From positions 1 through 22,595 of the forward strand of contig CAZKUP010000012.1 of the NCBI GenBank assembly GCA_964555985.1: a DNA stretch of 22,595 nt. Reading direction: 5' to 3'. Positions 4,429 through 21,427 of the stretch are shown here, in pieces. This DNA comes from an uncultured Clostridium sp. (GTDB lineage: Bacteria > Bacillota_I > Bacilli_A > RF39 > UBA660). A program made the position numbers and the translations under genes. Numbering within the stretch: the stretch's first letter is position 1; each line of letters opens with the position of its first letter. Under the pieces are notes generated by a model. That model was not told the origin of the DNA and did no database searches. It saw only the letters and a program-made list of their open reading frames with translations.

Positions 4429-4447
4429 ATATCAAACATATGTTTGT
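4429..4447. promoter_or_regulatory. 19-bp palindromic operator-like motif ATATCAAACATATGTTTGT (copy 1, secG upstream region)
   Basis: An identical 19-mer recurs at 15560-15578. The core CAAACATATGTTTG is a perfect palindrome, close to the Firmicutes LexA/Cheo box CGAACATATGTTCG (GAAC to AAAC). Confidence 0.4.
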
Positions 4448-5382
4448 CATTCTAAATCTAATATATCTCTCCAATTAACAGGAAAACCTATTTCATCTAG
4501 TATTGTTTCAAGAGTAATACTATCTATCTTACCATCAAGAGCATCCACCTCATATCCTAGTTCGTAAATAAGAAGTCTAAAATCATCCTTACTAAGCATA
4601 TATTTAAACATTATAACTAATGAATATAAATCATTCGTACCATATATATATTCCTCATTATAAATAGGAATATTTAACTTATGATGATATATATTATTTG
4701 GTATACCTCTTTGTGTTTTATGATTATAAAGTATATCTTCATGAGCACAAAGATTTCTATAATTTGACATTATAGGTAAAAATATACTTAAATCTTCCTC
4801 ATTAATTCCATAATACTTTGCAATTTCAATCTTATCCTCATGTTTTAAAATATTATATAACTCACTTAATATTCCAAAAGATAAAACTTTTACTAATATC
4901 CACATAGGTATATAACCATAATTTGTTAAATAATGAAGTGTTGCAGTATGTTGTTTAGCATTAACTCTTATTTGCCTTTTCATTTTATTTATTACATCTG
5001 CTACTTGTCTATGTTTAGATATATTTGTATCAAAATTTGACATTTTTAAATAATCTTTTTCCTTATAACCATATTTACTTGACAAATGATAACTAAAGAT
5101 AGATTTTAAATTGTTTTCCACAATTAATAAATATTTAAACATAATATTTCTTAAATTTCTATCAAATGAAAACAATGCATACAATTCATCAAATGTTGCT
5201 CCATCTATAAATCTTTTATTTTCTCCATCTTTCATAAATATATGTCTATATCCATTTATAAAAAAGTAATTTTCTCTTAACAAAATACTTTTAGTCTTAT
5301 CATAATCATTAATAATTAAGCCCTTATCTTTTAATATTTCTATTTGTTCTTCAATAGTTTTAAATTGTTTTACACGCCCCAT
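4447..5382 (-). CDS. abortive infection protein, Abi_2 (AbiD/AbiD1/AbiF) family
   Basis: N-terminal …FKTIEEQIEILKDKGLII…ENYFFINGYRHIF…FDELYALFSFDRNLRNIMFKYLLIVENNLKSIFSYHL… matches the conserved Abi_2 N-terminal region as recalled. Confidence 0.8.
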   Translation of the reverse strand: MGRVKQFKTIEEQIEILKDKGLIINDYDKTKSILLRENYFFINGYRHIFMKDGENKRFIDGATFDELYALFSFDRNLRNIMFKYLLIVENNLKSIFSYHLSSKYGYKEKDYLKMSNFDTNISKHRQVADVINKMKRQIRVNAKQHTATLHYLTNYGYIPMWILVKVLSFGILSELYNILKHEDKIEIAKYYGINEEDLSIFLPIMSNYRNLCAHEDILYNHKTQRGIPNNIYHHKLNIPIYNEEYIYGTNDLYSLVIMFKYMLSKDDFRLLIYELGYEVDALDGKIDSITLETILDEIGFPVNWRDILDLE

Positions 5383-5576: not shown

Positions 5577-5592
5577 AAGACTTAGTCTTCTA
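5576..5592. terminator. bidirectional hairpin terminator (AGAAGAC-TTA-GTCTTCT)
   Basis: Perfect 7-bp stem with 3-nt loop, T-rich on both sides. It terminates both the small ORF (plus strand) and the nuclease gene (minus strand). Confidence 0.6.
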
Positions 5593-6280
5593 TTTTGCTA
5601 CTTCCATCCTTGTAATTAATACTTATTCCATCTTGCACATTATAAACATATACATTAAACTCAATACCTTCTCCATTATCTTCAATAGAATACCCTTCCA
5701 TAATAACGCCACTAGCAAGTAAATTATCTTCTTGATATATAGGTGTTACTCTATAAAGCACATGATTATGTGTTTTTTTTATGTAACTTGCAATCTTATT
5801 TTCATATTCAAGCATCACACTTGTATTCATTTGTCTAGTACATGTAATTAAATTCTTTTCAAAAGCGTTCTTTCCTGTCAATTGATATCCAATTAAATGA
5901 CATCTATTATATAAATATTTACCTTCAATATTATCATATTTTGCTTGATTCCAACCACTAGGTTTAATCATACCAATACTTTTTCTATCTTCTTTCGGCA
6001 TTAATTCTTCTCCTAAACAAGCACTTACCTTGCCTGCTCTTCCAAGAAAATCAAGTTCACTATAATATTCATACGAAGTATTAGGTAAATTATCATAATC
6101 AAATAAAGGTTTATTATTATTTAAAATTACAAAAGAAAACCCTCTATATTCCGGAATATTAGATATATCATATGTTTCATCTTGAGAATCATATATTGTT
6201 TTATCTTTATCAATATTATAATAATACATTGCTATAAAAAAAGTTATAACTGCTATAATTAAACTTACTATTTTTTTCAT
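5582..6280 (-). CDS. membrane-anchored extracellular DNA/RNA non-specific endonuclease (DNA-entry-nuclease-like)
   Basis: N-terminal TM anchor. Conserved …GWNQAKY…NRCHLIGYQLTG… block resembles the His-Me finger non-specific nuclease family (NucA/EndA-like). Confidence 0.55.
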   Translation of the reverse strand: MKKIVSLIIAVITFFIAMYYYNIDKDKTIYDSQDETYDISNIPEYRGFSFVILNNNKPLFDYDNLPNTSYEYYSELDFLGRAGKVSACLGEELMPKEDRKSIGMIKPSGWNQAKYDNIEGKYLYNRCHLIGYQLTGKNAFEKNLITCTRQMNTSVMLEYENKIASYIKKTHNHVLYRVTPIYQEDNLLASGVIMEGYSIEDNGEGIEFNVYVYNVQDGISINYKDGSSKIED

Positions 6281-6340
6281 TCTATCACTACCTAATTAAA
6301 TTTTATCTAAAAACAATATTTTAGTAAATACTCTTTTTAA

Positions 6341-6997
6341 TTATTTTACATAATATCTAATAAGTGCATCATTTATAACTTGTGCTATTTTATCTTGATA
6401 ACTTGAAGTAATAAGTTTGTTTCTTTCATTTGGATTAGATATAAAACCAACTTCTAATAATAACCCCATTTTATTTATATTTTTATACATATACAAATCA
6501 TTTATTTCCTTTATCTTTCTATTACTATTTAATTTTTTATTAAATTCCTCTTGAAAAATTTTAGCAATACTTTCATTATCCTTATTTATATCATCATAAA
6601 ACACTTGAGCACCTTTCCATGATGAATTTAAAGATGAATTTAAATGAATAGACAAATACACATCCGCGTCACTTTCATTTATTAACTTTGCCCTATTTGC
6701 TAAATCACTTCTTTTTCTTAAAGAAACATTTTTACTAGACAAATCATAATCACCATCTCTTGTAATATACACAATCCCACCATTACTTTCTAGCTTCTTC
6801 TTTAACTTTAAAGTAATACTTAAGTTTATATCTTCTTCATATATATCTTTATAATATGCGCCCGGATCTATACCACCATGTCCAGGATCTAAATAAATAA
6901 CCCTTCCTAAAAGAGGAACATCATTTATAAATGCATTTACTTTATCAATTATACACACTAATAAAATAAAAATAATAAACATCTTTAATTTATACAT
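6341..6997 (-). CDS. cwlD: N-acetylmuramoyl-L-alanine amidase (Amidase_3), CwlD-like germination-specific amidase
   Basis: Signal/TM N-terminus. VIYLDPGHGGIDPGA…ADVYLSIHLNS…LLEVGFISNPNE are Amidase_3 hallmarks. Size (218 aa) fits CwlD. Confidence 0.75.
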   Translation of the reverse strand: MYKLKMFIIFILLVCIIDKVNAFINDVPLLGRVIYLDPGHGGIDPGAYYKDIYEEDINLSITLKLKKKLESNGGIVYITRDGDYDLSSKNVSLRKRSDLANRAKLINESDADVYLSIHLNSSLNSSWKGAQVFYDDINKDNESIAKIFQEEFNKKLNSNRKIKEINDLYMYKNINKMGLLLEVGFISNPNERNKLITSSYQDKIAQVINDALIRYYVK

Positions 6998-7083
6998 ATT
7001 TCCACCTAATTAATTATATTTATTTACATAAGAAAAAGACTTATGATAAGTCCTTTTTCACAAATACAAATATTTTACTTAAT
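6893..7083. repeat. direct repeat copy 1 (cwlD 5' ~105 nt + RBS/promoter + upstream terminator + last 27 nt of GtrA-like ORF)
   Basis: Near-identical to 8239-8405 (~103 nt 100% identical at the 3' side). Copy 2 carries a 12-nt and a 7-nt deletion and one substitution in the cwlD-derived part. Confidence 0.85.
7032..7059. terminator. hairpin terminator GAAAAAGACTTATGATAAGTCCTTTTTC (inside repeat copy 1)
   Basis: Imperfect ~11-bp stem with T-run. The same sequence in copy 2 (8352-8379) overlaps the stop region of the GtrA-like ORF. Confidence 0.55.
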
Positions 7084-7137
7084 TTGCTACATTATACACT
7101 ATAATCCCAAATAGTGTACTTTTACCTGATTCCATTA

Positions 7138-7857
7138 TTACATTATATTTTTCATTAAAATTAATCGTATGACTTTAATAATATATAATATTTCAATAGT
7201 TTTCTTTAACTCATTAGAACAATAAATATTTATATATTCTAATCTTTCTTCTTCACTTAAACCTTTACTATTATTCTTAAACATATCTCCTAATTTTTTG
7301 TAATTTCCATTAATACTTTCATGACTGGCAATAATCATATCCATCTTAGATACATTTGTAAGGTCTAAATATATGCCATTTATTTTAGCAAGTGATTCTA
7401 TAAATACTCTTTGACTTCTACCATTACCTTCACGAAAAGGATGTAAAGCATTAATATCAGCAAATAATTCTACTAATTTATCTAGTGTTGTTTCATTATC
7501 ATAATCTACAAAGTATTTTTCTTTTTTTAACTTGCTAAATACATCATTGCCAAATGATTCTATATGCTCTGTTAAACAGAATAAATCTTGTTTAGCAATA
7601 TTACAGTTTCTTATATCTCCAGCCCATCTATAAACATCTTGAAATAAATATTTATGAATATCTTTTAAATATTTAAAGTCAAAATTACCTTTTAATGGTT
7701 TTTCGTTTAATTCTAAAGTTCTTAAAGATACAAGTTCTCTTTCAGCATTAAATAAATCTTCATCATTAGTAATATTTAATTTATTAATTAAAACATCAGT
7801 TCCTTTATAACAATAATCTGCAGTTCTTTCATAAGTATATTTATATTTATTATCCAT
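7138..7857 (-). CDS. fic: Fic-family protein (class I Fic toxin, adenylyltransferase-type FIC motif)
   Basis: Canonical FIC motif HPFREGNGRSQR. No internal (S/T)xxxE(G/N) inhibitory motif was seen. An 8-nt overlap with the upstream small ORF suggests translational coupling. Confidence 0.8.
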   Translation of the reverse strand: MDNKYKYTYERTADYCYKGTDVLINKLNITNDEDLFNAERELVSLRTLELNEKPLKGNFDFKYLKDIHKYLFQDVYRWAGDIRNCNIAKQDLFCLTEHIESFGNDVFSKLKKEKYFVDYDNETTLDKLVELFADINALHPFREGNGRSQRVFIESLAKINGIYLDLTNVSKMDMIIASHESINGNYKKLGDMFKNNSKGLSEEERLEYINIYCSNELKKTIEILYIIKVIRLILMKNIM

Positions 7858-8041
7858 AAATTCCTCTATACTTTTCTATAACTTTTCTACGTTCTATTTC
7901 AGTTGTTGACTTTCCAGTTATACAATTATAAAGTTTTTGTTTTATTTCTTTAGTTAGTGGCATTCCCTCTTGTGCCATAGCACCATCAACTTTTTTTATT
8001 TTTTCTTGTATTTCTTTTTCAGTTTGCTTTTTATTACTCAT
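7850..8041 (-). CDS. putative Fic antitoxin (VbhA/FicA-like small inhibitory protein)
   Basis: 63 aa and helical. Contains AMAQEG, which resembles the (S/T)xxxE(G/N) inhibitory motif. It precedes fic and overlaps it. An extended -10 TGGTATAAT lies upstream on the minus strand at 8078-8086. Confidence 0.55.
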   Translation of the reverse strand: MSNKKQTEKEIQEKIKKVDGAMAQEGMPLTKEIKQKLYNCITGKSTTEIERRKVIEKYRGIYG

Positions 8042-8069
8042 TTAAATCACTCACTTTCTAAAGTTTTTT

Positions 8070-8110
8070 GTACATCTATTATACCACAATTTGCTTAATA
8101 TATCATTAGT
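8070..8110 (-). promoter_or_regulatory. promoter of antitoxin-fic operon (extended -10 TGGTATAAT)
   Basis: Minus-strand AAATTGTGGTATAATAGATG lies ~35 nt upstream of the antitoxin ATG. An RBS-like GTGAGTGA is present. Confidence 0.45.
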
Positions 8111-8238
8111 TTTGACATAATAAAAATGCATTCGTTAAAAAGTATCTTATTGTAATTATTATTAAATTATATAAAATATAGTTTGCTACAACTAGGTCTA
8201 TTTATACCGGGGTTAATCTCACTTTGATTCTCAAGGCT

Positions 8239-8405
8239 ATAAATAACCCTTCCTAAAAGAGGTAAAATGCATTTACTTTATCAATTACGCACACTAATAA
8301 ACATCTTTAATTTATACATATTTCCACCTAATTAATTATATTTATTTACATAAGAAAAAGACTTATGATAAGTCCTTTTTCACAAATACAAATATTTTAC
8401 TTAAT
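8239..8405. repeat. direct repeat copy 2 (decayed cwlD 5' fragment + terminator + 3' end of GtrA-like gene)
   Basis: See copy 1. It flanks the 1155-bp segment 7084-8238 that carries the Fic module. Confidence 0.85.
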
Positions 8406-8875
8406 ACATAATTTAATACAAGTACAACTACTTGGAGTATTATTTTTGATACCATATCATTTATATGTAATAAATCTACAAATACCATCATAAGTACTAC
8501 TTCTAATAATAATGTTACAAGTCTACAACTTACAAACTTAGTTATTTCTTTAATAATATCTTTTTCTTTACTTTCAAACACAAATAATCTATTTGTAATA
8601 TATGCAAAAGTTACTGCACATATCCATGATAAAATAGATAGTATTATATAGTTTTTTATAGCAAATCTAATAATCCAATAACTTCCTATACTTACAAGTG
8701 TAGTAAGTGCGCCTACTATAATGTAATTAACTATTTCTTTATATTTTTTGTATAATTCTTTTATTTTTTCTTTATAAATTATATATATTACTATAAATAT
8801 TAATAAAAATATTAGAATTAATATGTTAAGTATTAATTTGTTGTCTAAATAAAATTTTAAAAGTATATCAATCAT
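8363..8875 (-). CDS. GtrA-family membrane protein (polysaccharide/teichoic-acid glycosylation, putative lipid-linked sugar flippase)
   Basis: Small 4-TM protein; …YIIVGALTTLVSIGSYWIIRF… is GtrA-like. ATGA start/stop overlap with the upstream yfhO. The true start may lie downstream of the tracked ATG. Confidence 0.6.
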   Translation of the reverse strand: MIDILLKFYLDNKLILNILILIFLLIFIVIYIIYKEKIKELYKKYKEIVNYIIVGALTTLVSIGSYWIIRFAIKNYIILSILSWICAVTFAYITNRLFVFESKEKDIIKEITKFVSCRLVTLLLEVVLMMVFVDLLHINDMVSKIILQVVVLVLNYVLSKIFVFVKKDLS

Positions 8876-11376
8876 TTTACCACTCTTTTCTTTTTAAAAA
8901 TATCGCTATAAATAATTGGAAGTGTAATCATACATCCACAAATAGAAACAATTAAACCTTCTAATAAATAAGGTGCGGTATAATTTATTTTTATCTCATG
9001 GTACCCTTCATTTATTTTAAATCCTATAAATGTATCATTTATTTTTTCATATTCTACTTCTTTATCATCTAAATAAATAGTAAAACCTTTTTCTTCATAT
9101 GGAATAGTTAATACAAAATATCCATTTTCTTTAACATTAATATTACCAAATATATTATCTCCTTTTGTTTTTTCTTTATCAATCATTAATTTATCAACAC
9201 TATCAACATAGTCTGTTAAATATTTATAGTCTAAAATTTCTACTTTTATATTTGATATTATGTATTTACCTTTCGCAAATTCTATATTTAATTCATCAAT
9301 TACATCATTAGATGATATTACATATTCAAATGTATAATTTTTATTATGATAGGTCCATCCTTTACAAGATAGTGTGTTTTTTACTCCGTTTATTGTTATA
9401 GATGTATCTCCTATTTTACATGTTTGTGAATATTCCATATCAAATGTTATAAATAATATTTTATTATTGTATTCTTTATTTAATTTTAAATTAATATTAC
9501 CATTGTTTTTACTTTCTATTACATATTTTTCTTCTTCTTTAGTTATATCTACATATTTATATGTGGCATTATAATCTAATTTTTCTTCTTTTATTACTGA
9601 TTTATATTCTTGTGACACGTTGTCATTTGTAATAATATTTGTTACTTTTGCAAAAGACTTTTCTGTTTTACTTAAGTTATTATAATCTTTAATATTTATT
9701 ACTTTAGTAGTAGAATATCCAATAGGAAGAACTTCTTCATTTACATATACATCACTATTTTCTATGTTAGAGTATCCAATTGGTACGCATTCTCCTATCA
9801 TGTATTTTGTACCTACAAATGTATTAAACAATATATTTTTTGTAGATGTTATTGCAGTAGAAATTCTATTTGGCATTTCGTTATTTATTCCATCTGTATA
9901 TAAATTATAATAATTTGAATTTTCTAAAGAAGAATAAATTGATGGTAAATAATAATTTGAATTAATTACTCTATTTATATTTTTCATACCTAATGTATCA
10001 TTTGCAACTCTATAAATATTATCATCACTATCTATTATTTTATTTAGAATATCATAATTATAAGTATTTAGTTGTTCTTTTAATTCATCCTTTGTTACTA
10101 ATTTATCACTATAATTACATGATAAACAAGTTATTAAAGAGGAAAATACTGCTATAAATATTAAATATGATTTAGTATTATATTTATTACATAAAATTAA
10201 CACTATAAATATTGCAAGTAATTCTAGTATAACTACATAATATTTATTAAATAATATAGATATTATAATAATAATTGAGGTTATTACAAATGTTTTTATA
10301 AATTTCTTATTTATTTTTAATTTATCTATAAATAAGACAATTAATAATATTGCAAGTGGTAATAAAGGTATTAATACTTTACCTCTTACATACATAAATC
10401 CACTTAGAATATATATTATTATTGGAAATAAAATTATAAGTATAAATATTATTGATAAGAATTTATAATTTTTTTCTTTAGTAAAAAACGAATATATTAT
10501 TGCAGGTATTAATATTGCAGTAACACCTATTGTATATGAATTATAAAGTATTTCTTTAAAACTTAAATTAGGAATAAGTAAATTAAGAATATCTACACTT
10601 TTTGTTATTTCTGGTCTTCCATTTAAAAGAGCATATAGTGTAGGTAAAATTAATACAGAAGATAAACTGATTCCTACTATAATTGGAAATAAAAACTTAA
10701 ACCCATCTTTTAAAAAGGAAGTAATTGTTATTTTTTTGTTTATTTCAATATATTTATAAATTCCATATAAAACGATACATATAATTGCTGCAACACTATA
10801 ATAATAACTACTCATTATAATTAAAAATACACTTAAAACAATTAATGTTTTTTTATTACTTTTAAAATAATTATCTACTCCAATTAATGCAAGTAATAGA
10901 AATGGCATGTAATTAATAAACATAATATGTCTATGAGTATGATAAATAAGTGGTGCACTTAACATAAATAATAGTGTACCAAAGAATACATATTTTCTAT
11001 CAAATTTATCATATAAAAAGTAATACATAAGTATAGCACTTGAAATAACAACTATAATCATAGATATTTGTATAAATAAAGACATATTTATAAAAGGAAA
11101 AAGATAAGATAATAAAACAATTGGACTTAGTAAGCCATAATATGATAAATTATATATATTTTCTCCAGCGCCTAAATTAAATGCAAAAGAAGGAAATATA
11201 TCTTTAGTGTCATAAAATAATGTTCTAAAATACTCAGGTATAATCCAATGCTGTGACTCCCAATCCACTTCTGAACCATTAACATAATCAATTCTAATTA
11301 TTGAAAATAATATTACTGAAAAAATTATTAAAATTATTCCAATATTTATACAGTCTTTTTTAGTAAATTTTTTCAT
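8872..11376 (-). CDS. yfhO: YfhO-family membrane glycosyltransferase (teichoic acid glycosylation)
   Basis: ~835 aa with many N-terminal TM helices and a large C-terminal extracytoplasmic domain, as in B. subtilis YfhO. Start moved to MKKFTKKD (ATG 11374-11376, RBS AAGAGGTG). Confidence 0.7.
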   Translation of the reverse strand: MKKFTKKDCINIGIILIIFSVILFSIIRIDYVNGSEVDWESQHWIIPEYFRTLFYDTKDIFPSFAFNLGAGENIYNLSYYGLLSPIVLLSYLFPFINMSLFIQISMIIVVISSAILMYYFLYDKFDRKYVFFGTLLFMLSAPLIYHTHRHIMFINYMPFLLLALIGVDNYFKSNKKTLIVLSVFLIIMSSYYYSVAAIICIVLYGIYKYIEINKKITITSFLKDGFKFLFPIIVGISLSSVLILPTLYALLNGRPEITKSVDILNLLIPNLSFKEILYNSYTIGVTAILIPAIIYSFFTKEKNYKFLSIIFILIILFPIIIYILSGFMYVRGKVLIPLLPLAILLIVLFIDKLKINKKFIKTFVITSIIIIISILFNKYYVVILELLAIFIVLILCNKYNTKSYLIFIAVFSSLITCLSCNYSDKLVTKDELKEQLNTYNYDILNKIIDSDDNIYRVANDTLGMKNINRVINSNYYLPSIYSSLENSNYYNLYTDGINNEMPNRISTAITSTKNILFNTFVGTKYMIGECVPIGYSNIENSDVYVNEEVLPIGYSTTKVINIKDYNNLSKTEKSFAKVTNIITNDNVSQEYKSVIKEEKLDYNATYKYVDITKEEEKYVIESKNNGNINLKLNKEYNNKILFITFDMEYSQTCKIGDTSITINGVKNTLSCKGWTYHNKNYTFEYVISSNDVIDELNIEFAKGKYIISNIKVEILDYKYLTDYVDSVDKLMIDKEKTKGDNIFGNINVKENGYFVLTIPYEEKGFTIYLDDKEVEYEKINDTFIGFKINEGYHEIKINYTAPYLLEGLIVSICGCMITLPIIYSDIFKKKRVVK

Positions 11377-11439
11377 TTTGCACCTCTTATGCACATTATA
11401 ACACATTGTAAGATAAATAAAAACATTTTAAAATAAATT

Positions 11440-18633: not shown

Positions 18634-19872
18634 TTAATTTTCATCAGCTATAATATTTTCTATTTCTTCTCCAATTTTTTCAATAACTCCAACTACTAGA
18701 GCATTTCCCATCATAAAGTTTCTTTTCTTTTCAGTCATACCTGTATTTGTCCAATTGTCTGGAAATCCATTGATTCTTTCACATTCAACAGGGGTTAATA
18801 ATCTAGGTTTCTTAGTTTTATAATCCTCTATAACATGTGTTGTTCTACTTACTCCACCTTCACTAGTAAGCATTGTTCTAGCTGGAGCATCTAAATTATC
18901 TGGAAATGGCATAGCACCTTCACAATAATTATAAGGGTCTCCATTAGGTTTAATTCTAGGAATCTTCTTACTACCTTTTAAGAATGCAAATTTTTCAATT
19001 TGTGCATCTGTTAAAAAGTATTTTTTATCAACTTCTTGTTCTTCTCTAATTTTTCTTAATGGATATATTAAATTATAATCTGCTTTAGTTTTAACTGTAT
19101 AAATTCCACCATCATGCATAACTCCAGCATTATAAAATTCGCATTTAAAGTTATTACTTACATCAATTAAATCTTTATATTCTGAAATACTTGATTTAGT
19201 AATTGCATGATATTGATTTTCGATTGGAAATTGTTTAACAAATATCCCTTCTTCAAATATTAAATCTCTATCATTTATGTTTTTCATTTTCTTATAATAA
19301 TTAGTTGATTTATGATAAGCGAATATATAAATTCTTCTTCTTTTTTGTGGAAGTCCATATTCTCCAGCATTAATAACTCTCCACTCAACATCATAACCAT
19401 TTTCATAGAAACTTCTTAAAATCATTCCAAAATCTCTACCTCTTTGTTTGGCAGGAGATAATAATAATCTATCAACATTTTCTAGTAATACAAATGGAGG
19501 TTGTTTTACTGCAAGTATTTCTTCAATAGCCCACCATAAAACACCTTTTTTACCTTCAATACCTTTACTATTAGATAACGTTTGAGCTACTGAATAATCT
19601 TGACATGGAAATCCACCCACTAATAATGTGTGGTTAGGAATTTCTTTTTTATCAACTTCAAATATATCTACATTGCTAACATCATCAAAACCGAATCTTG
19701 TACCATAACAATTATAAGCATCTTGTGTTTTTGTAGATGGTTCCCATTGATTAGCCCATACAAATTCCCAATTACCATTTTCTTCTACTTTATCATTATC
19801 TAATGAAACTTTATTTAAACCGCATCTAAAACCACCGACACCAGCGAATAATTCCACACAAGTCTTTTTCAT
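18634..19872 (-). CDS. DNA (cytosine-5)-methyltransferase, Sau3AI-methylase-like (predicted GATC-specific m5C MTase)
   Basis: Motif I ELFAGVGGF, motif IV GGFPCQDYS, motif VI ENV, WANQWEPS block. 412 aa. RBS GGAGG. Divergent from a MutH/Sau3AI-like endonuclease gene. Confidence 0.8.
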   Translation of the reverse strand: MKKTCVELFAGVGGFRCGLNKVSLDNDKVEENGNWEFVWANQWEPSTKTQDAYNCYGTRFGFDDVSNVDIFEVDKKEIPNHTLLVGGFPCQDYSVAQTLSNSKGIEGKKGVLWWAIEEILAVKQPPFVLLENVDRLLLSPAKQRGRDFGMILRSFYENGYDVEWRVINAGEYGLPQKRRRIYIFAYHKSTNYYKKMKNINDRDLIFEEGIFVKQFPIENQYHAITKSSISEYKDLIDVSNNFKCEFYNAGVMHDGGIYTVKTKADYNLIYPLRKIREEQEVDKKYFLTDAQIEKFAFLKGSKKIPRIKPNGDPYNYCEGAMPFPDNLDAPARTMLTSEGGVSRTTHVIEDYKTKKPRLLTPVECERINGFPDNWTNTGMTEKKRNFMMGNALVVGVIEKIGEEIENIIADEN

Positions 19873-19910
19873 TTTGTACCTCCTGTTTATTGTTAAATAA
19901 CACTAATTAT

Positions 19911-19982
19911 ATTATAATATAATTGATTGAAAAGATCAACCTTACCAGAGAATATTATACTAAATTTCTTGGTAAAGATCAA
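19911..19982 (-). promoter_or_regulatory. two tandem near-consensus promoters for the MTase, each TTGATC-N17-TATAAT, with GATC inside each -35
   Basis: Minus-strand −35 elements at 19977-19982 and 19934-19939 (both TTGATC), with −10 elements at 19954-19959 and 19911-19916 (both TATAAT). A third GATC at 20027-20030 lies in the endonuclease 5' UTR. Confidence 0.5.
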
Positions 19983-20044
19983 CTTTTCTATATAAATATT
20001 TTATATTATTTTTTTGATAAAAACAAGATCGAAAGGAGAAATTT

Positions 20045-21427
20045 ATGAAAAAAGGAAGACATTATTCAGAAACTGAAATTAGAATACTAGCTCAATCCGT
20101 AATCGGTAAAACTTTTAATGAAATCAAAGAGTATGAAATTGTTTCAATAGACGATTCAAAGATTCAAAAAGGTTCCTTAGGTGGAATAATAGAAGAAGCA
20201 TTATATGGTATTGAACCTAATGGTGAATCAGAACCAGATTTTATAGATGCAGGAATTGAATTAAAAGTAACACCATATAAGAAAAATAAAGACAATACTT
20301 TATCTGCAAAAGAAAGACTTGTATTAAATATGATTGACTTCATGACAGAATATAAAAATGAATTTAAATCAAGTCATTTCTGGTTTAAAAATAATAGACT
20401 TGAAATAATATGGTACATGCATGAAGATAATAAAGATAAATATGAATTTAAAATTACAAATGAATTACTATTAGATTTATCATTAAGCGAAGATATTAAA
20501 CAAATAGAAAAAGATTTCTATGTAATTACAAATAAAATTAAAGAAGGCAAAGCTCACGAATTATCAGAAGCAGATACAATGTATTTAGGTGCATGTACTA
20601 AAGGTGCTAATTCTAATGATGTAAGACAACAACCATTTAATGATTTACCAGCAAAACGAAGAGCTTTCTGTTTTAAATCTTCATATATGACACAATTAGT
20701 AAGAAAATATATTGGAGATTATTCTAATGTTGAAAAAGTATTAAAAGGTACTGATAAGACATTTAATGAATTTATAGAAAGTGTTGTTAACAAATATAAA
20801 GGAAAAACTCAAAAAGAATTAATGAATGAATATGGACTTGAATCAACTGCTAAAAATTTAAATAATATGTTAATTAGTAGAATGTTTAAAGTTAAAAGTA
20901 AGTTAGCAGAAACAGAAGAATTCCAAAAAGCTAAGATTATTCCTAAAACAATTAGAATAGAAGAAAATGGAAGAATTAAAGAATCAATTTCTTTCCCTTA
21001 TTTTAAATATACAGAATTAGTAAATCAAGATTGGGAAACTTCTGATTTAAAGGAAGAACTTGAAACAACTAAATATATGTTCTTTGTGTTCAAAATGGAA
21101 AATGGAGAGTATGTATTTAAAGGTATTAAATTATGGAATATGCCTGAGTTAGATATTGAAACATCTGTAATGGAAATGTGGAAGAAAACATATAATACTA
21201 TTAAAAGTGGAAATATTGTTAAATCAATAGAGAATGGATATAGAACTACTAATTTCGTAGGCATGAGTGAAAATTTAGTTTGTCATGTGAGACCTCATGG
21301 AAGAAATGCGCAAGATACTTGTAAATTACCTGTACCTGATAAATTAACAGGAGCTACAGAATACACAAAACATTGTTTTTGGATTAATAGTTCTTATATT
21401 AGAGAAATATTTAATGAATACATTTAA
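20045..21427 (+). CDS. type II restriction endonuclease, Sau3AI/MutH-like family (predicted GATC)
   Basis: N-terminal domain aligns to MutH blocks (KGSLGGIIEEALYG…EPDF…GIELKVTPY…ERLVL, versus MutH KGWIGVLLEIWLG…EQDF…GVELKTIP). 460 aa, like Sau3AI-family enzymes. RBS AAAGGAGA. Confidence 0.7.
   Translation: MKKGRHYSETEIRILAQSVIGKTFNEIKEYEIVSIDDSKIQKGSLGGIIEEALYGIEPNGESEPDFIDAGIELKVTPYKKNKDNTLSAKERLVLNMIDFMTEYKNEFKSSHFWFKNNRLEIIWYMHEDNKDKYEFKITNELLLDLSLSEDIKQIEKDFYVITNKIKEGKAHELSEADTMYLGACTKGANSNDVRQQPFNDLPAKRRAFCFKSSYMTQLVRKYIGDYSNVEKVLKGTDKTFNEFIESVVNKYKGKTQKELMNEYGLESTAKNLNNMLISRMFKVKSKLAETEEFQKAKIIPKTIRIEENGRIKESISFPYFKYTELVNQDWETSDLKEELETTKYMFFVFKMENGEYVFKGIKLWNMPELDIETSVMEMWKKTYNTIKSGNIVKSIENGYRTTNFVGMSENLVCHVRPHGRNAQDTCKLPVPDKLTGATEYTKHCFWINSSYIREIFNEYI

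Follow-up and report, generated by a model that had tools for sequence, protein, structure and literature searches.

A 22,595-nt stretch of DNA from an uncultured Clostridium sp. (contig CAZKUP010000012.1 of assembly GCA_964555985.1; hereafter the window) carries a Fic toxin gene, ficT, and a small open reading frame (ORF) upstream of it, ficA, on a 1155-bp insert that lies between long direct repeats, next to a cwlD-like gene for an N-acetylmuramoyl-L-alanine amidase. We conclude that this insert is probably a left-end stump of an integrative mobilizable element (IME) that entered cwlD, and that the flanking repeat is a duplication of host DNA through which the gene was rebuilt. Coordinates given without a locus number (L numbers denote the loci compared) are window positions, the whole region around the cassette lies on the minus strand, and a caret within a sequence marks a junction. 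Read in the direction of transcription, the structure consists of gtrA, a repeat copy with the old cwlD 5' part, an attL stump, ficA, ficT and a broken ATPase gene, joined to a second repeat copy whose new cwlD 5' part continues into the rest of cwlD (Table 1).

An earlier note on this DNA had described direct repeats at 6893-7083 (copy 1) and 8239-8405 (copy 2), and these are real and flank the 1155-bp ficA/ficT insert. The repeat comprises a core of 111 nt that is 100% identical (6973-7083 and 8295-8405), a further segment of 37 nt with 2 substitutions (6929-6965 and 8265-8301), and an outer segment of 24 identical nt (6893-6916 and 8239-8262), with which it ends at 6893/8239; copy 2 has deletions of 10 nt and 14 nt and one extra substitution beside the 10-nt gap, making three substitutions in total. 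As the note held, copy 1 runs into cwlD, which we find to be uninterrupted and to contain an intact target site, and copy 2 is joined to the 3' end of the GtrA-like gene and carries a decayed, frameshifted cwlD 5' fragment, which translates as MYKLKMFISVRN up to a stop. The note was right that the repeat contains the cwlD 5' end and an upstream terminator, but it overlooked the last 43 nt of gtrA: the repeat begins 43 nt inside that gene, so that copy 1 bears a duplicate of the last 14 gtrA codons and the stop (7041-7083). A hairpin overlaps the gtrA stop (-11.1 kcal/mol and z = -3.2 by folding) and was not called by a simple terminator scan. The repeat proved to be duplicated local host DNA, and the alternative that it represents a widespread intergenic repeat family was not borne out. 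From its sequence, copy 2 appears to be the original cwlD 5' part that the element cut off, and copy 1 the duplicate that restored cwlD together with attB.

The empty site was recovered in close relatives, which we reached through a protein homology search, exact-protein look-ups of cwlD and GtrA having given nothing. Loci L108-L111 and L119-L120, whose cwlD is 95-96% identical to that of the window, have the arrangement YfhO-GtrA-43 nt-cwlD with a single repeat copy and no fic gene, which confirms the ancestral order of gtrA, terminator and cwlD that had been proposed. A more distant relative, L005, keeps the synteny YfhO-GtrA-cwlD-Abi_2, and in L006 and L007 other small genes sit between gtrA and cwlD. 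The window cwlD is collinear with the cwlD of the empty-site relatives, and the crossover point inferred from relatives maps to ~6878/6877, within the intact window gene.

In about 100 loci the upstream sequence of ficAT was compared with the downstream sequence, and the junctions were inspected. In L016-L023 an identical Fic gene lies within one element that occupies at least six unrelated chromosomal contexts, in the order 264-aa ORF, ficA, ficT, 280-aa ORF, Mob_Pre relaxase, helix-turn-helix (HTH) protein and further genes. The left flanks of these elements always end in (I/V)-(I/V)-D-x-G-H codons, which encode the N-terminal catalytic motif of Amidase_3, and the conserved element end that follows the G-H codons reads CCGAGTTAAAATAAACCC...AGTTGTAGCAAA. 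In a wider scan the element end abutted the G-H codons in at least 12 different amidase genes, and it abuts (I/V)-D-x-G-H in L016-L023, L024, L028/L032/L100, L029, L034 and L097/L102.

One of these loci, L029, holds a complete element of ~8 kb in a secreted cwlD-type gene, with Abi_2 downstream as in the window. From left to right it consists of a cwlD 5' fragment, attL, ficA, ficT (product identical to P0001 and 93% identical to the window FicT), a gene for a pP_pnuc_1 protein, Mob_Pre, HTH proteins, a large serine recombinase (LSR), attR, and cwlD from residue 37. The LSR, at the right end of the element, has 535 aa and the domains Resolvase, Recombinase, Zn_ribbon_recom and DUF4368. The L029 attL reads GATGCGGGGCAC^CCGAGTGAGATTAAACCCAG (in shorter form GGGGCAC^CCGAGTGAGATTAAACCCAG) and its attR reads CTGGGTCAAACCGATACCAGCCAT^GGTGGTAAAGAT (in shorter form CTGGGTCAAACCGATACCAGCCAT^GGTGG); the two junctions share only the 2-nt CA, and both flank exactly the D-x-G-H^G-G motif. 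The attP reconstructed from them (CTGGGTCAAACCGATACCAGCCAY CCGAGTGAGATTAAACCCAG) has the outer inverted hexamers CTGGGT and ACCCAG. These comparisons show a family of predicted LSR IMEs for which the D-x-G-H^G-G codons of Amidase_3 genes serve as the integration site; we found no report of an amidase gene or cwlD as an integration target in the literature, in a search that excluded most subscription journals.

Two further features of the family were observed. The pP_pnuc_1 gene next to ficT (5722-6573 of L029), which encodes a predicted pPIWI-associated nuclease, may be defence-type cargo; the domain was scanned in L029 only, and the L016 counterpart of the gene lies at 5731-6573. In L021 (1963-3830) a split LSR gene is followed by 170 nt, a ribosome-binding site (RBS), the reading 'MSLKVIIDSGH' and then the element left end, an arrangement that looks like the attP junction of a circular or tandem form whose P arm mimics the amidase N-terminus. 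Judging by this P arm, some family members may preserve cytoplasmic amidase targets.

Read against these elements, the window insert begins with a recognizable element end. Its left end is 86-90% identical to those of the elements in L016-L023, L028 and L029, with 8139-8223 homologous to the element left end, 8107-8223 forming the promoter-proximal attL half-site, and the attL P' arm at 8182-8223 ~90% identical to that of L029. Copy 2, being joined to this P' arm, appears to be the original attL side of an insertion at the DPGH^GG codons of cwlD. The 15 nt between them, at 8224-8238, match neither cwlD nor any element end among the loci compared. At the other end, the insert tail is homologous to the tails of L028 and L032 (KKYNVIIGNNELGKSTIF... 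against EKYNVIM---ESGKSTLF), relative to which the window ATPase remnant has deletions of 77 nt, just downstream of the old ficT stop, and 9 nt. At the breakpoint, 7083/7084, this remnant directly abuts the gtrA 3' fragment of copy 1; attR is absent from the right side, and an intact attB follows the duplicate instead. Everything past the first ATPase codons, including relaxase and recombinase, was lost with the remainder of the element.

The 17 window ORFs that we scanned against Pfam contained no recombinase, integrase, relaxase or transposase domain. Neither an LSR gene nor, as a sign of a relaxase or an origin of transfer (oriT), a Mob gene is found there, Mob_Pre being present in L029 and L016-L023 and not in the window. 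Given that the complete relative L029 has an LSR, the window insert is a remnant rather than a member of the IMEs. It also differs from a cis-mobilizable element (CIME), which by definition retains both att sites: the window stump has a degenerate attL only and lacks attR, its right side being the ATPase break joined to duplicated host DNA. Two other readings of the tail were rejected. The possibility that it is host DNA with a counterpart ahead of the upstream repeat copy gave p = 0.24-0.9 in local alignments with shuffling, and an oriT, suggested by the resemblance of TATAGTGT to the pMV158 nick region, was dropped because the inverted repeat there is at chance level, unconserved and inside a coding remnant.

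These boundaries contradict the earlier proposal that the Fic cassette landed between gtrA and cwlD with a long target duplication, as the insertion point lies inside cwlD, at DPGH^GG. We consider it barely credible that the 1155-bp cassette was itself the inserting unit, with widely staggered cuts in the gtrA-cwlD intergenic region and repair synthesis producing a 170-190-bp duplication. In its favour are the host direct repeats around the cassette, the empty site with one copy, and the finding that the only TTTGCTACA copies of the window lie near the two ends. However, the repeat ends at the serine-recombinase target within cwlD and not in intergenic DNA; the insert ends, for which element-end motifs had been proposed, are an attL half-site on one side and a break inside the ATPase gene on the other; the window ORFs scanned gave no sign of a transposase or recombinase; and in homologous scars the duplicated stretch measures 135, 171, 185 and at least 480 nt, the element-side breakpoints being different. 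Duplications that range from 135 to >480 nt with differing junctions do not fit a staggered-cut target duplication.

The two motifs themselves hold up only in part. TTTGCTACA does have just two window copies, at 7083 and 8182, but it does not serve as an element terminus, since the copy at 7083 is unconserved; the copy at 8182 is part of the conserved element end and leader AGTTGTAGCAAA. The perfect 8-bp inverted repeat exists as well, at 7095 within the ATPase remnant, but its significance does not survive comparison with chance: inverted repeats of this kind, with 3-12-nt spacers, occur at 1.5/kb in the window, ~0.8 are expected per 1155 random nt, 46% of random 1155-nt sequences contain at least one, and the repeat is absent from L028/L032, the closest homologous cassettes. 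The remark that the locus bears no insertion sequence (IS), integron or transposon signature stands. With respect to a transposon or IS, there is no transposase among the 17 ORFs scanned, the ends are unrelated and the duplication measures 167/191 nt; with respect to an integron cassette, there is no integrase in the scanned window ORFs, the tail inverted repeat is unconserved and the flanks are host coding sequence.

To judge from the loci compared, the combination of solo ficAT, a host duplication of 135-190 nt or longer and an intact amidase gene recurs in other gut bacteria, in at least five lineages besides this one. The L024 scar has a duplication of 171 nt (97.7% identity) that begins 21 nt within a PRK-kinase-domain gene (PF00485) and ends at GGACAC^, and its amidase gene is intact. 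In L028/L032 the duplication is 185 nt (99.5%), and the upstream gene, read from sequence with no profile scan, looks like a uracil-DNA glycosylase gene. The remaining scars are L034, with 135 nt (90%); L097/L102, with at least 61 nt and a cytoplasmic LysM-type amidase as the target; and L100, with at least 480 nt, where the junction lies inside ficT and the contig stops short of the amidase. Except in L028 and possibly L100, the scars examined have an intact amidase gene. In L100 (1246-3450) the duplication extends from the 3' end of a gene read as folD (unscanned) to the amidase 5' end, the junction falls at ~codon 115 of ficT, and the upstream copy of the neighbouring uracil-DNA-glycosylase-like gene (unscanned) is internally deleted. 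Eroded forms also occur: L035 retains a 27-nt repeat only, its cwlD fragment and P' arm being deleted, L040 has no repeat, and in L105/L106 ficAT is internally deleted.

The restored site can evidently be used again. L028 carries a further, different element in its restored site, whereas L032, with the same scar, has an intact amidase gene, which indicates that the rebuilt attB is usable and has been reused. This second, unrelated insert in L028 (11033-13177) consists of a 78-aa ORF and a 334-aa ORF that reads like a radical-SAM enzyme (unscanned). Between hosts, the cassette including its non-coding leader is ~90% identical, whereas the cwlD regions are ~70% identical and the intergenic DNA is unalignable; it follows that each lineage obtained its cassette by horizontal transfer and formed its host duplication locally. 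On the same grounds we rejected a single ancient scar maintained by vertical inheritance and concerted evolution. Four of the scars have a host duplication that begins just 21-86 nt ahead of the amidase start codon, which trimming together with selection for an RBS or promoter may explain.

We also weighed whether the solo cassette could be a non-autonomous mini-element, moved in trans by the recombinase of a full-length element and using the duplicated amidase 5' region as its second arm. The window and L028/L032, from unrelated hosts, share the whole cassette including the truncated ATPase tail, scars always lie at the recombinase target, the restored attB is reusable (L028), and L021 suggests an amidase-like N-terminus in the P arm of some elements. 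We nevertheless find this explanation quite unlikely, as the downstream repeat is host-specific, matching the upstream copy at 97-100% and including the 3' end of the host's own upstream gene, and an imported arm would not match the host in that way. The substrates of LSRs are attP and attB (or, given a directionality factor, attL and attR), and these enzymes are not known to recombine attL with attB. L024, L034 and L100, moreover, have different element-side ends.

Because the window is a metagenome-derived contig, an assembly artefact has to be considered, in which a strain with an interrupted cwlD and a strain with an empty site were joined through the shared 111-nt repeat; contigs alone would likewise allow an empty site accompanied by a 1.3-kb circle in place of an integrated cassette. 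The k-mer-based Logan contigs of related samples do break inside the repeat. Such a join is nonetheless very unlikely: independent contigs from other runs (L001, L002) contain both the junction of tail, gtrA fragment and cwlD start and the junction of decayed fragment and attL, the former of these cannot come from mixing two simple alleles, and the same integrated design was assembled across imperfect repeats in L024, L028, L032 and L034.

The unevenness of the repeat bears on how it arose. A perfect 111-nt part beside a cwlD part of ~80 nt that differs in several places would agree with constraint on the 111 nt, and equally with a mosaic origin, such as a Campbell-type event or a variant involving transformation. 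In a Campbell-type event, a circle of ficAT with one repeat copy, popped out of an existing scar in another strain and taken up by transformation or mobilisation, would have integrated at a naive gtrA-cwlD locus by a single crossover in the 111 nt. This would yield exactly the order of repeat, insert and repeat, and a mosaic of old and recent DNA would fit a 111-nt part at 100% identity beside a ~80-nt part that has three substitutions and two deletions and whose core is scrambled; copy 2, in addition, keeps the bases of the relative L108, taken as ancestral, at two sites where the functional cwlD copy differs. On the other hand, such an event accounts for the spread of the scar and not for its origin, as the junction between the ATPase gene and gtrA must have formed once in the species, and the gtrA fragment of copy 1 is identical to the genome's own gtrA. 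We therefore give it a minor share of the probability, and prefer a stump left in place beside a duplication of local host DNA.

The cassette had been described as a Fic toxin/antitoxin pair with its own promoter, and as a prediction this is supported by the PF02661 match of FicT, by the overlapping 63-aa ORF and by an extended -10 promoter (ATGATA-17-TGnTATAAT, 8106-8078, minus strand) that is the best promoter match in the region. The Fic catalytic motif HxFx(D/E)GNGRxxR is intact in the translation of ficT, as HPFREGNGRSQR. Among solved structures the best match is chain 8wt0_A, 'Cell filamentation protein Fic' (E = 9.6e-30), with VbhT (3SHG) and Fic (5JFZ) among the others (E-values 1e-27 to 1e-30); FicT falls below the equivalog cutoffs of curated profiles. 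It has 3665 homologues at E <= 1e-10, and the best 120 of the 3665 are 81-93% identical, nearly all of them 223 aa long. The window protein has grown from 223 to 239 aa, as the ancestral stop at 7186-7188 changed from TAA to TTA and 16 extra codons (7138-7185) are now read from the ATPase remnant. In plasmid collections we found only distant Fic genes (~65%), on Campylobacter and Bacillus plasmids, and phage collections yielded nothing.

FicA had no sequence match in Pfam, NCBIfam or PDB, permissive Pfam and PDB searches included, and did not align with an approximate VbhA sequence. In the alignment of its homologues the stretch GAM(A/T)QEGMPLTK is invariant, and it is reminiscent of the inhibitory helix, with its Glu, of class I Fic antitoxins. 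The inhibitory helix motif of that class is (S/T)xxxE(G/N), and FicA reads AxxxEG, with the Glu-Gly present and Ala in place of Ser/Thr at the first position. The pair shares with class I modules such as VbhT/VbhA of Bartonella and FicT/FicA the toxin motif HPFx(D/E)GNGRxxR, structural relatives in VbhT and E. coli Fic, a small upstream ORF that overlaps the toxin gene, and an invariant Glu-Gly in a helix-like stretch; it differs in the AxxxEG of FicA, which shows no detectable sequence similarity to VbhA, and in a FicT that is below equivalog cutoffs and has lost its stop.

A course of events that would lead to the present locus can be proposed. The element would have inserted in cwlD at about codon 40, at DPGH^GG. 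One illegitimate junction between the ATPase gene and the gtrA 3' end (7083/7084), formed by tandem duplication or by unequal exchange between element-bearing and element-free sister chromosomes, would then have given a short duplication of the repeat, attL and ficAT, after which the complete element copy could have been excised precisely by its own recombinase, restoring attB; replacement of the element's right part by recombination with DNA of an element-free strain would be an equivalent route. If FicT is a class I Fic adenosine monophosphate (AMP)-transferase toxin that FicA restrains through its conserved Glu-Gly motif, loss of ficAT along with the element would poison cells (post-segregational killing), and among cells regaining cwlD only those that kept ficAT would have left descendants. 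We infer that the retention of ficAT alone is best explained by such addiction. Later small deletions, of which the old cwlD fragment has two and the tail at least two, would have eroded the non-functional DNA, leaving a stand-alone chromosomal toxin-antitoxin pair that would be expressed from its own extended -10 promoter and may immunise the host against addiction by incoming elements of the same family.

Duplication around ficAT was also seen in a different setting. In L050 (9591-9711) and ~30 similar loci (L046-L078), a ficAT pair of 78% identity, located between genes read as topA and gpmI, is preceded by its own collapsed ghost copy, made up of the ficA start, the ficA end and a terminator, which yields a direct repeat of 66-106 nt around the live cassette. 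Tandem duplication of the ficAT cassette therefore occurs elsewhere.

Several points count against an origin of the insert as an IME stump kept through addiction. An LSR and a relaxase occur together in only one complete relative, L029, among the loci examined, and the exact parent element, with a full-length ATPase gene behind ficT, was not found in those loci or in viral contigs. The window attL core is unrecognisable, replaced by the 15 anomalous nt at 8224-8238. With its stop codon lost, FicT may be no longer fully active, and FicA departs from the class I pattern both in its Ala and in the lack of detectable similarity to VbhA. The window and L028/L032 break the ATPase gene no more than 30 nt apart, which is unexpected for fully independent random junctions; the last 25-30 nt before the junction show no significant similarity between the window and L032 (p = 0.31 in a test for a breakpoint at the same nucleotide), and the near coincidence may be due to chance, to a hotspot or to an ancestor in which the gene was truncated beforehand. 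Lastly, the duplication route and the addiction argument are both proposals.

The neighbouring genes are transcribed from the minus strand in the order yfhO, gtrA-like gene, 63-aa ORF, Fic gene, cwlD-like gene, non-specific endonuclease gene and Abi_2. The linkage of the gtrA-like gene to yfhO is common to the window, L005, L006 and L108. Against TIGR02883 (spore_cwlD) the cwlD-like protein scores 205.9 bits, slightly below the cutoff of 221.55. Between cwlD and Abi_2 lies a gene for a secreted non-specific endonuclease (Endonuclea_NS_2, 5582-6280), which is present in the closer relatives L107 and L112 and not at that position in L005-L007. The abortive-infection-like Abi_2 gene (4447-5382) is found downstream of cwlD in L005, L006, L007, L024 and L029 as well; this linkage spans hosts whose cwlD is only 44-70% identical, and Abi_2 behaves as a conserved syntenic core gene and not as an island gene. 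Farther away, a transfer-messenger RNA (tmRNA) gene (18-359; tag GNRNQLAFA) adjoins smpB (384-830), followed by an RNase R (RNB family) gene and secG, a housekeeping context. At 18634-21427 a C-5 cytosine DNA methylase gene stands beside a 460-aa gene with a MutH/Sau3AI-type endonuclease domain, likely a type II restriction-modification pair.

Table 1 Features of the fic-cwlD region of the window
Feature	Position	Strand	Description
cwlD-like N-acetylmuramoyl-L-alanine amidase gene	6341-6997	-	218 aa, intact; PF01520 (Amidase_3), E = 1.4e-44
attB-like target inside cwlD	6855-6900 (outer limits approximate)	-	intact; reads TTAGATCCTGGACAT^GGTGGTATAGATCC, codons L-D-P-G-H^G-G
Repeat copy 1	6893-7083	-	191 nt; cwlD codons 1-35 (6893-6997), 43-nt intergenic DNA with RBS (6998-7040), gtrA 3' duplicate (7041-7083)
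Insert tail	7084-7185	-	decayed N-terminal fragment of a P-loop (GKST) ATPase gene, formerly behind ficT in the parent element
ficT, Fic toxin gene	7138-7857	-	239 aa; PF02661, E = 1.3e-12
ficA, putative antitoxin gene	7850-8041	-	63 aa; 8-nt overlap with ficT; upstream of ficT in every related locus examined
Element left end	8042-8223	-	P' half-site AGTGAGATTAACCCCGG... (from 8223 downward), AGTTGTAGCAAA box (~8182-8194), leader, promoter (8106-8078)
15 anomalous nt	8224-8238	-	AGCCTTGAGAATCAA; in place of the last five target codons and the attL crossover core
Repeat copy 2	8239-8405	-	167 nt; true gtrA 3' end (8363-8405), intergenic DNA, original decayed, frameshifted cwlD 5' part
gtrA-like gene	8363-8875	-	170 aa; PF04138, E = 1.3e-25
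yfhO	8872-11406	-	YfhO, PF09586; upstream of the gtrA-like gene

The element family resembles IMEs of the Tn4451/Tn4453 type and other site-specific LSR IMEs (PMC5704250), L029 having a TnpX-like LSR, a Mob_Pre (MobV-type) relaxase and HTH regulators. Serine-recombinase IMEs are known to integrate within genes and to leave only ~2-bp repeats (PMC5704250), as L029 does with its shared 2-nt CA, and IMEs with toxin-antitoxin modules have also been described. The difference lies in the target, here the DxGH^GG codons of Amidase_3 genes, and in the state of the window, a stump without recombinase, relaxase or attR. A second likeness is to the elements that interrupt sporulation genes, namely skin in sigK, SPbeta in spsM and gin in gerE (PMC5595907, PMC4191935, PMC5499854): here as there, an element with a serine recombinase interrupts a gene related to spores, and the gene is made whole by precise excision, with the caveat that the window cwlD assignment is slightly below the TIGR02883 cutoff. 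Unlike in those systems, cwlD here would have been restored permanently in the germ line by the 5' duplication, and the left end of the element stays behind. Toxin-antitoxin modules stabilise IMEs such as SGI1 (PMC5704250), and the locus shares with SgiAT of that island a pair borne at the element edge that outlives or protects the element. It shares with anti-addiction chromosomal copies the prospect that the window ficAT could neutralise addiction by incoming relatives. What differs is the solo pair with attL and a target-repairing duplication of 135-190 nt, recurring in several lineages; we found no report of such toxin-antitoxin-only scars with repairing duplications in a literature search that excluded most subscription journals.

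The recurrence of the scar may, as a tentative proposal, reflect a general and undescribed rule, whereby the addictive pair blocks simple loss of the element, and a rare duplication retains the pair while mending the gene and leaving attB open to reuse, after which the pair would act as a 'vaccine'. In a more radical version, solo ficAT with attL would be a non-autonomous cassette that passes from species to species and regenerates the long duplications of host DNA. At the window itself, the odd 'long target duplication' resolves into known parts: an LSR mobilizable element, a Fic pair and a host duplication. Two aspects we did not find described, namely a widespread element family of gut Bacilli that inserts at the catalytic-motif codons of genes for cell-wall amidases, among them the spore-cortex gene cwlD, and the repeated outcome in which the addiction module alone survives beside a duplicated, repaired target gene. 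The att sites defined here could supply a new pair of site-specific recombinase and target for the toolbox. If the addiction logic is true, these scars would be natural evidence that toxin-antitoxin pairs constrain how hosts shed mobile elements, and would explain the origin of orphan chromosomal toxin-antitoxin pairs.

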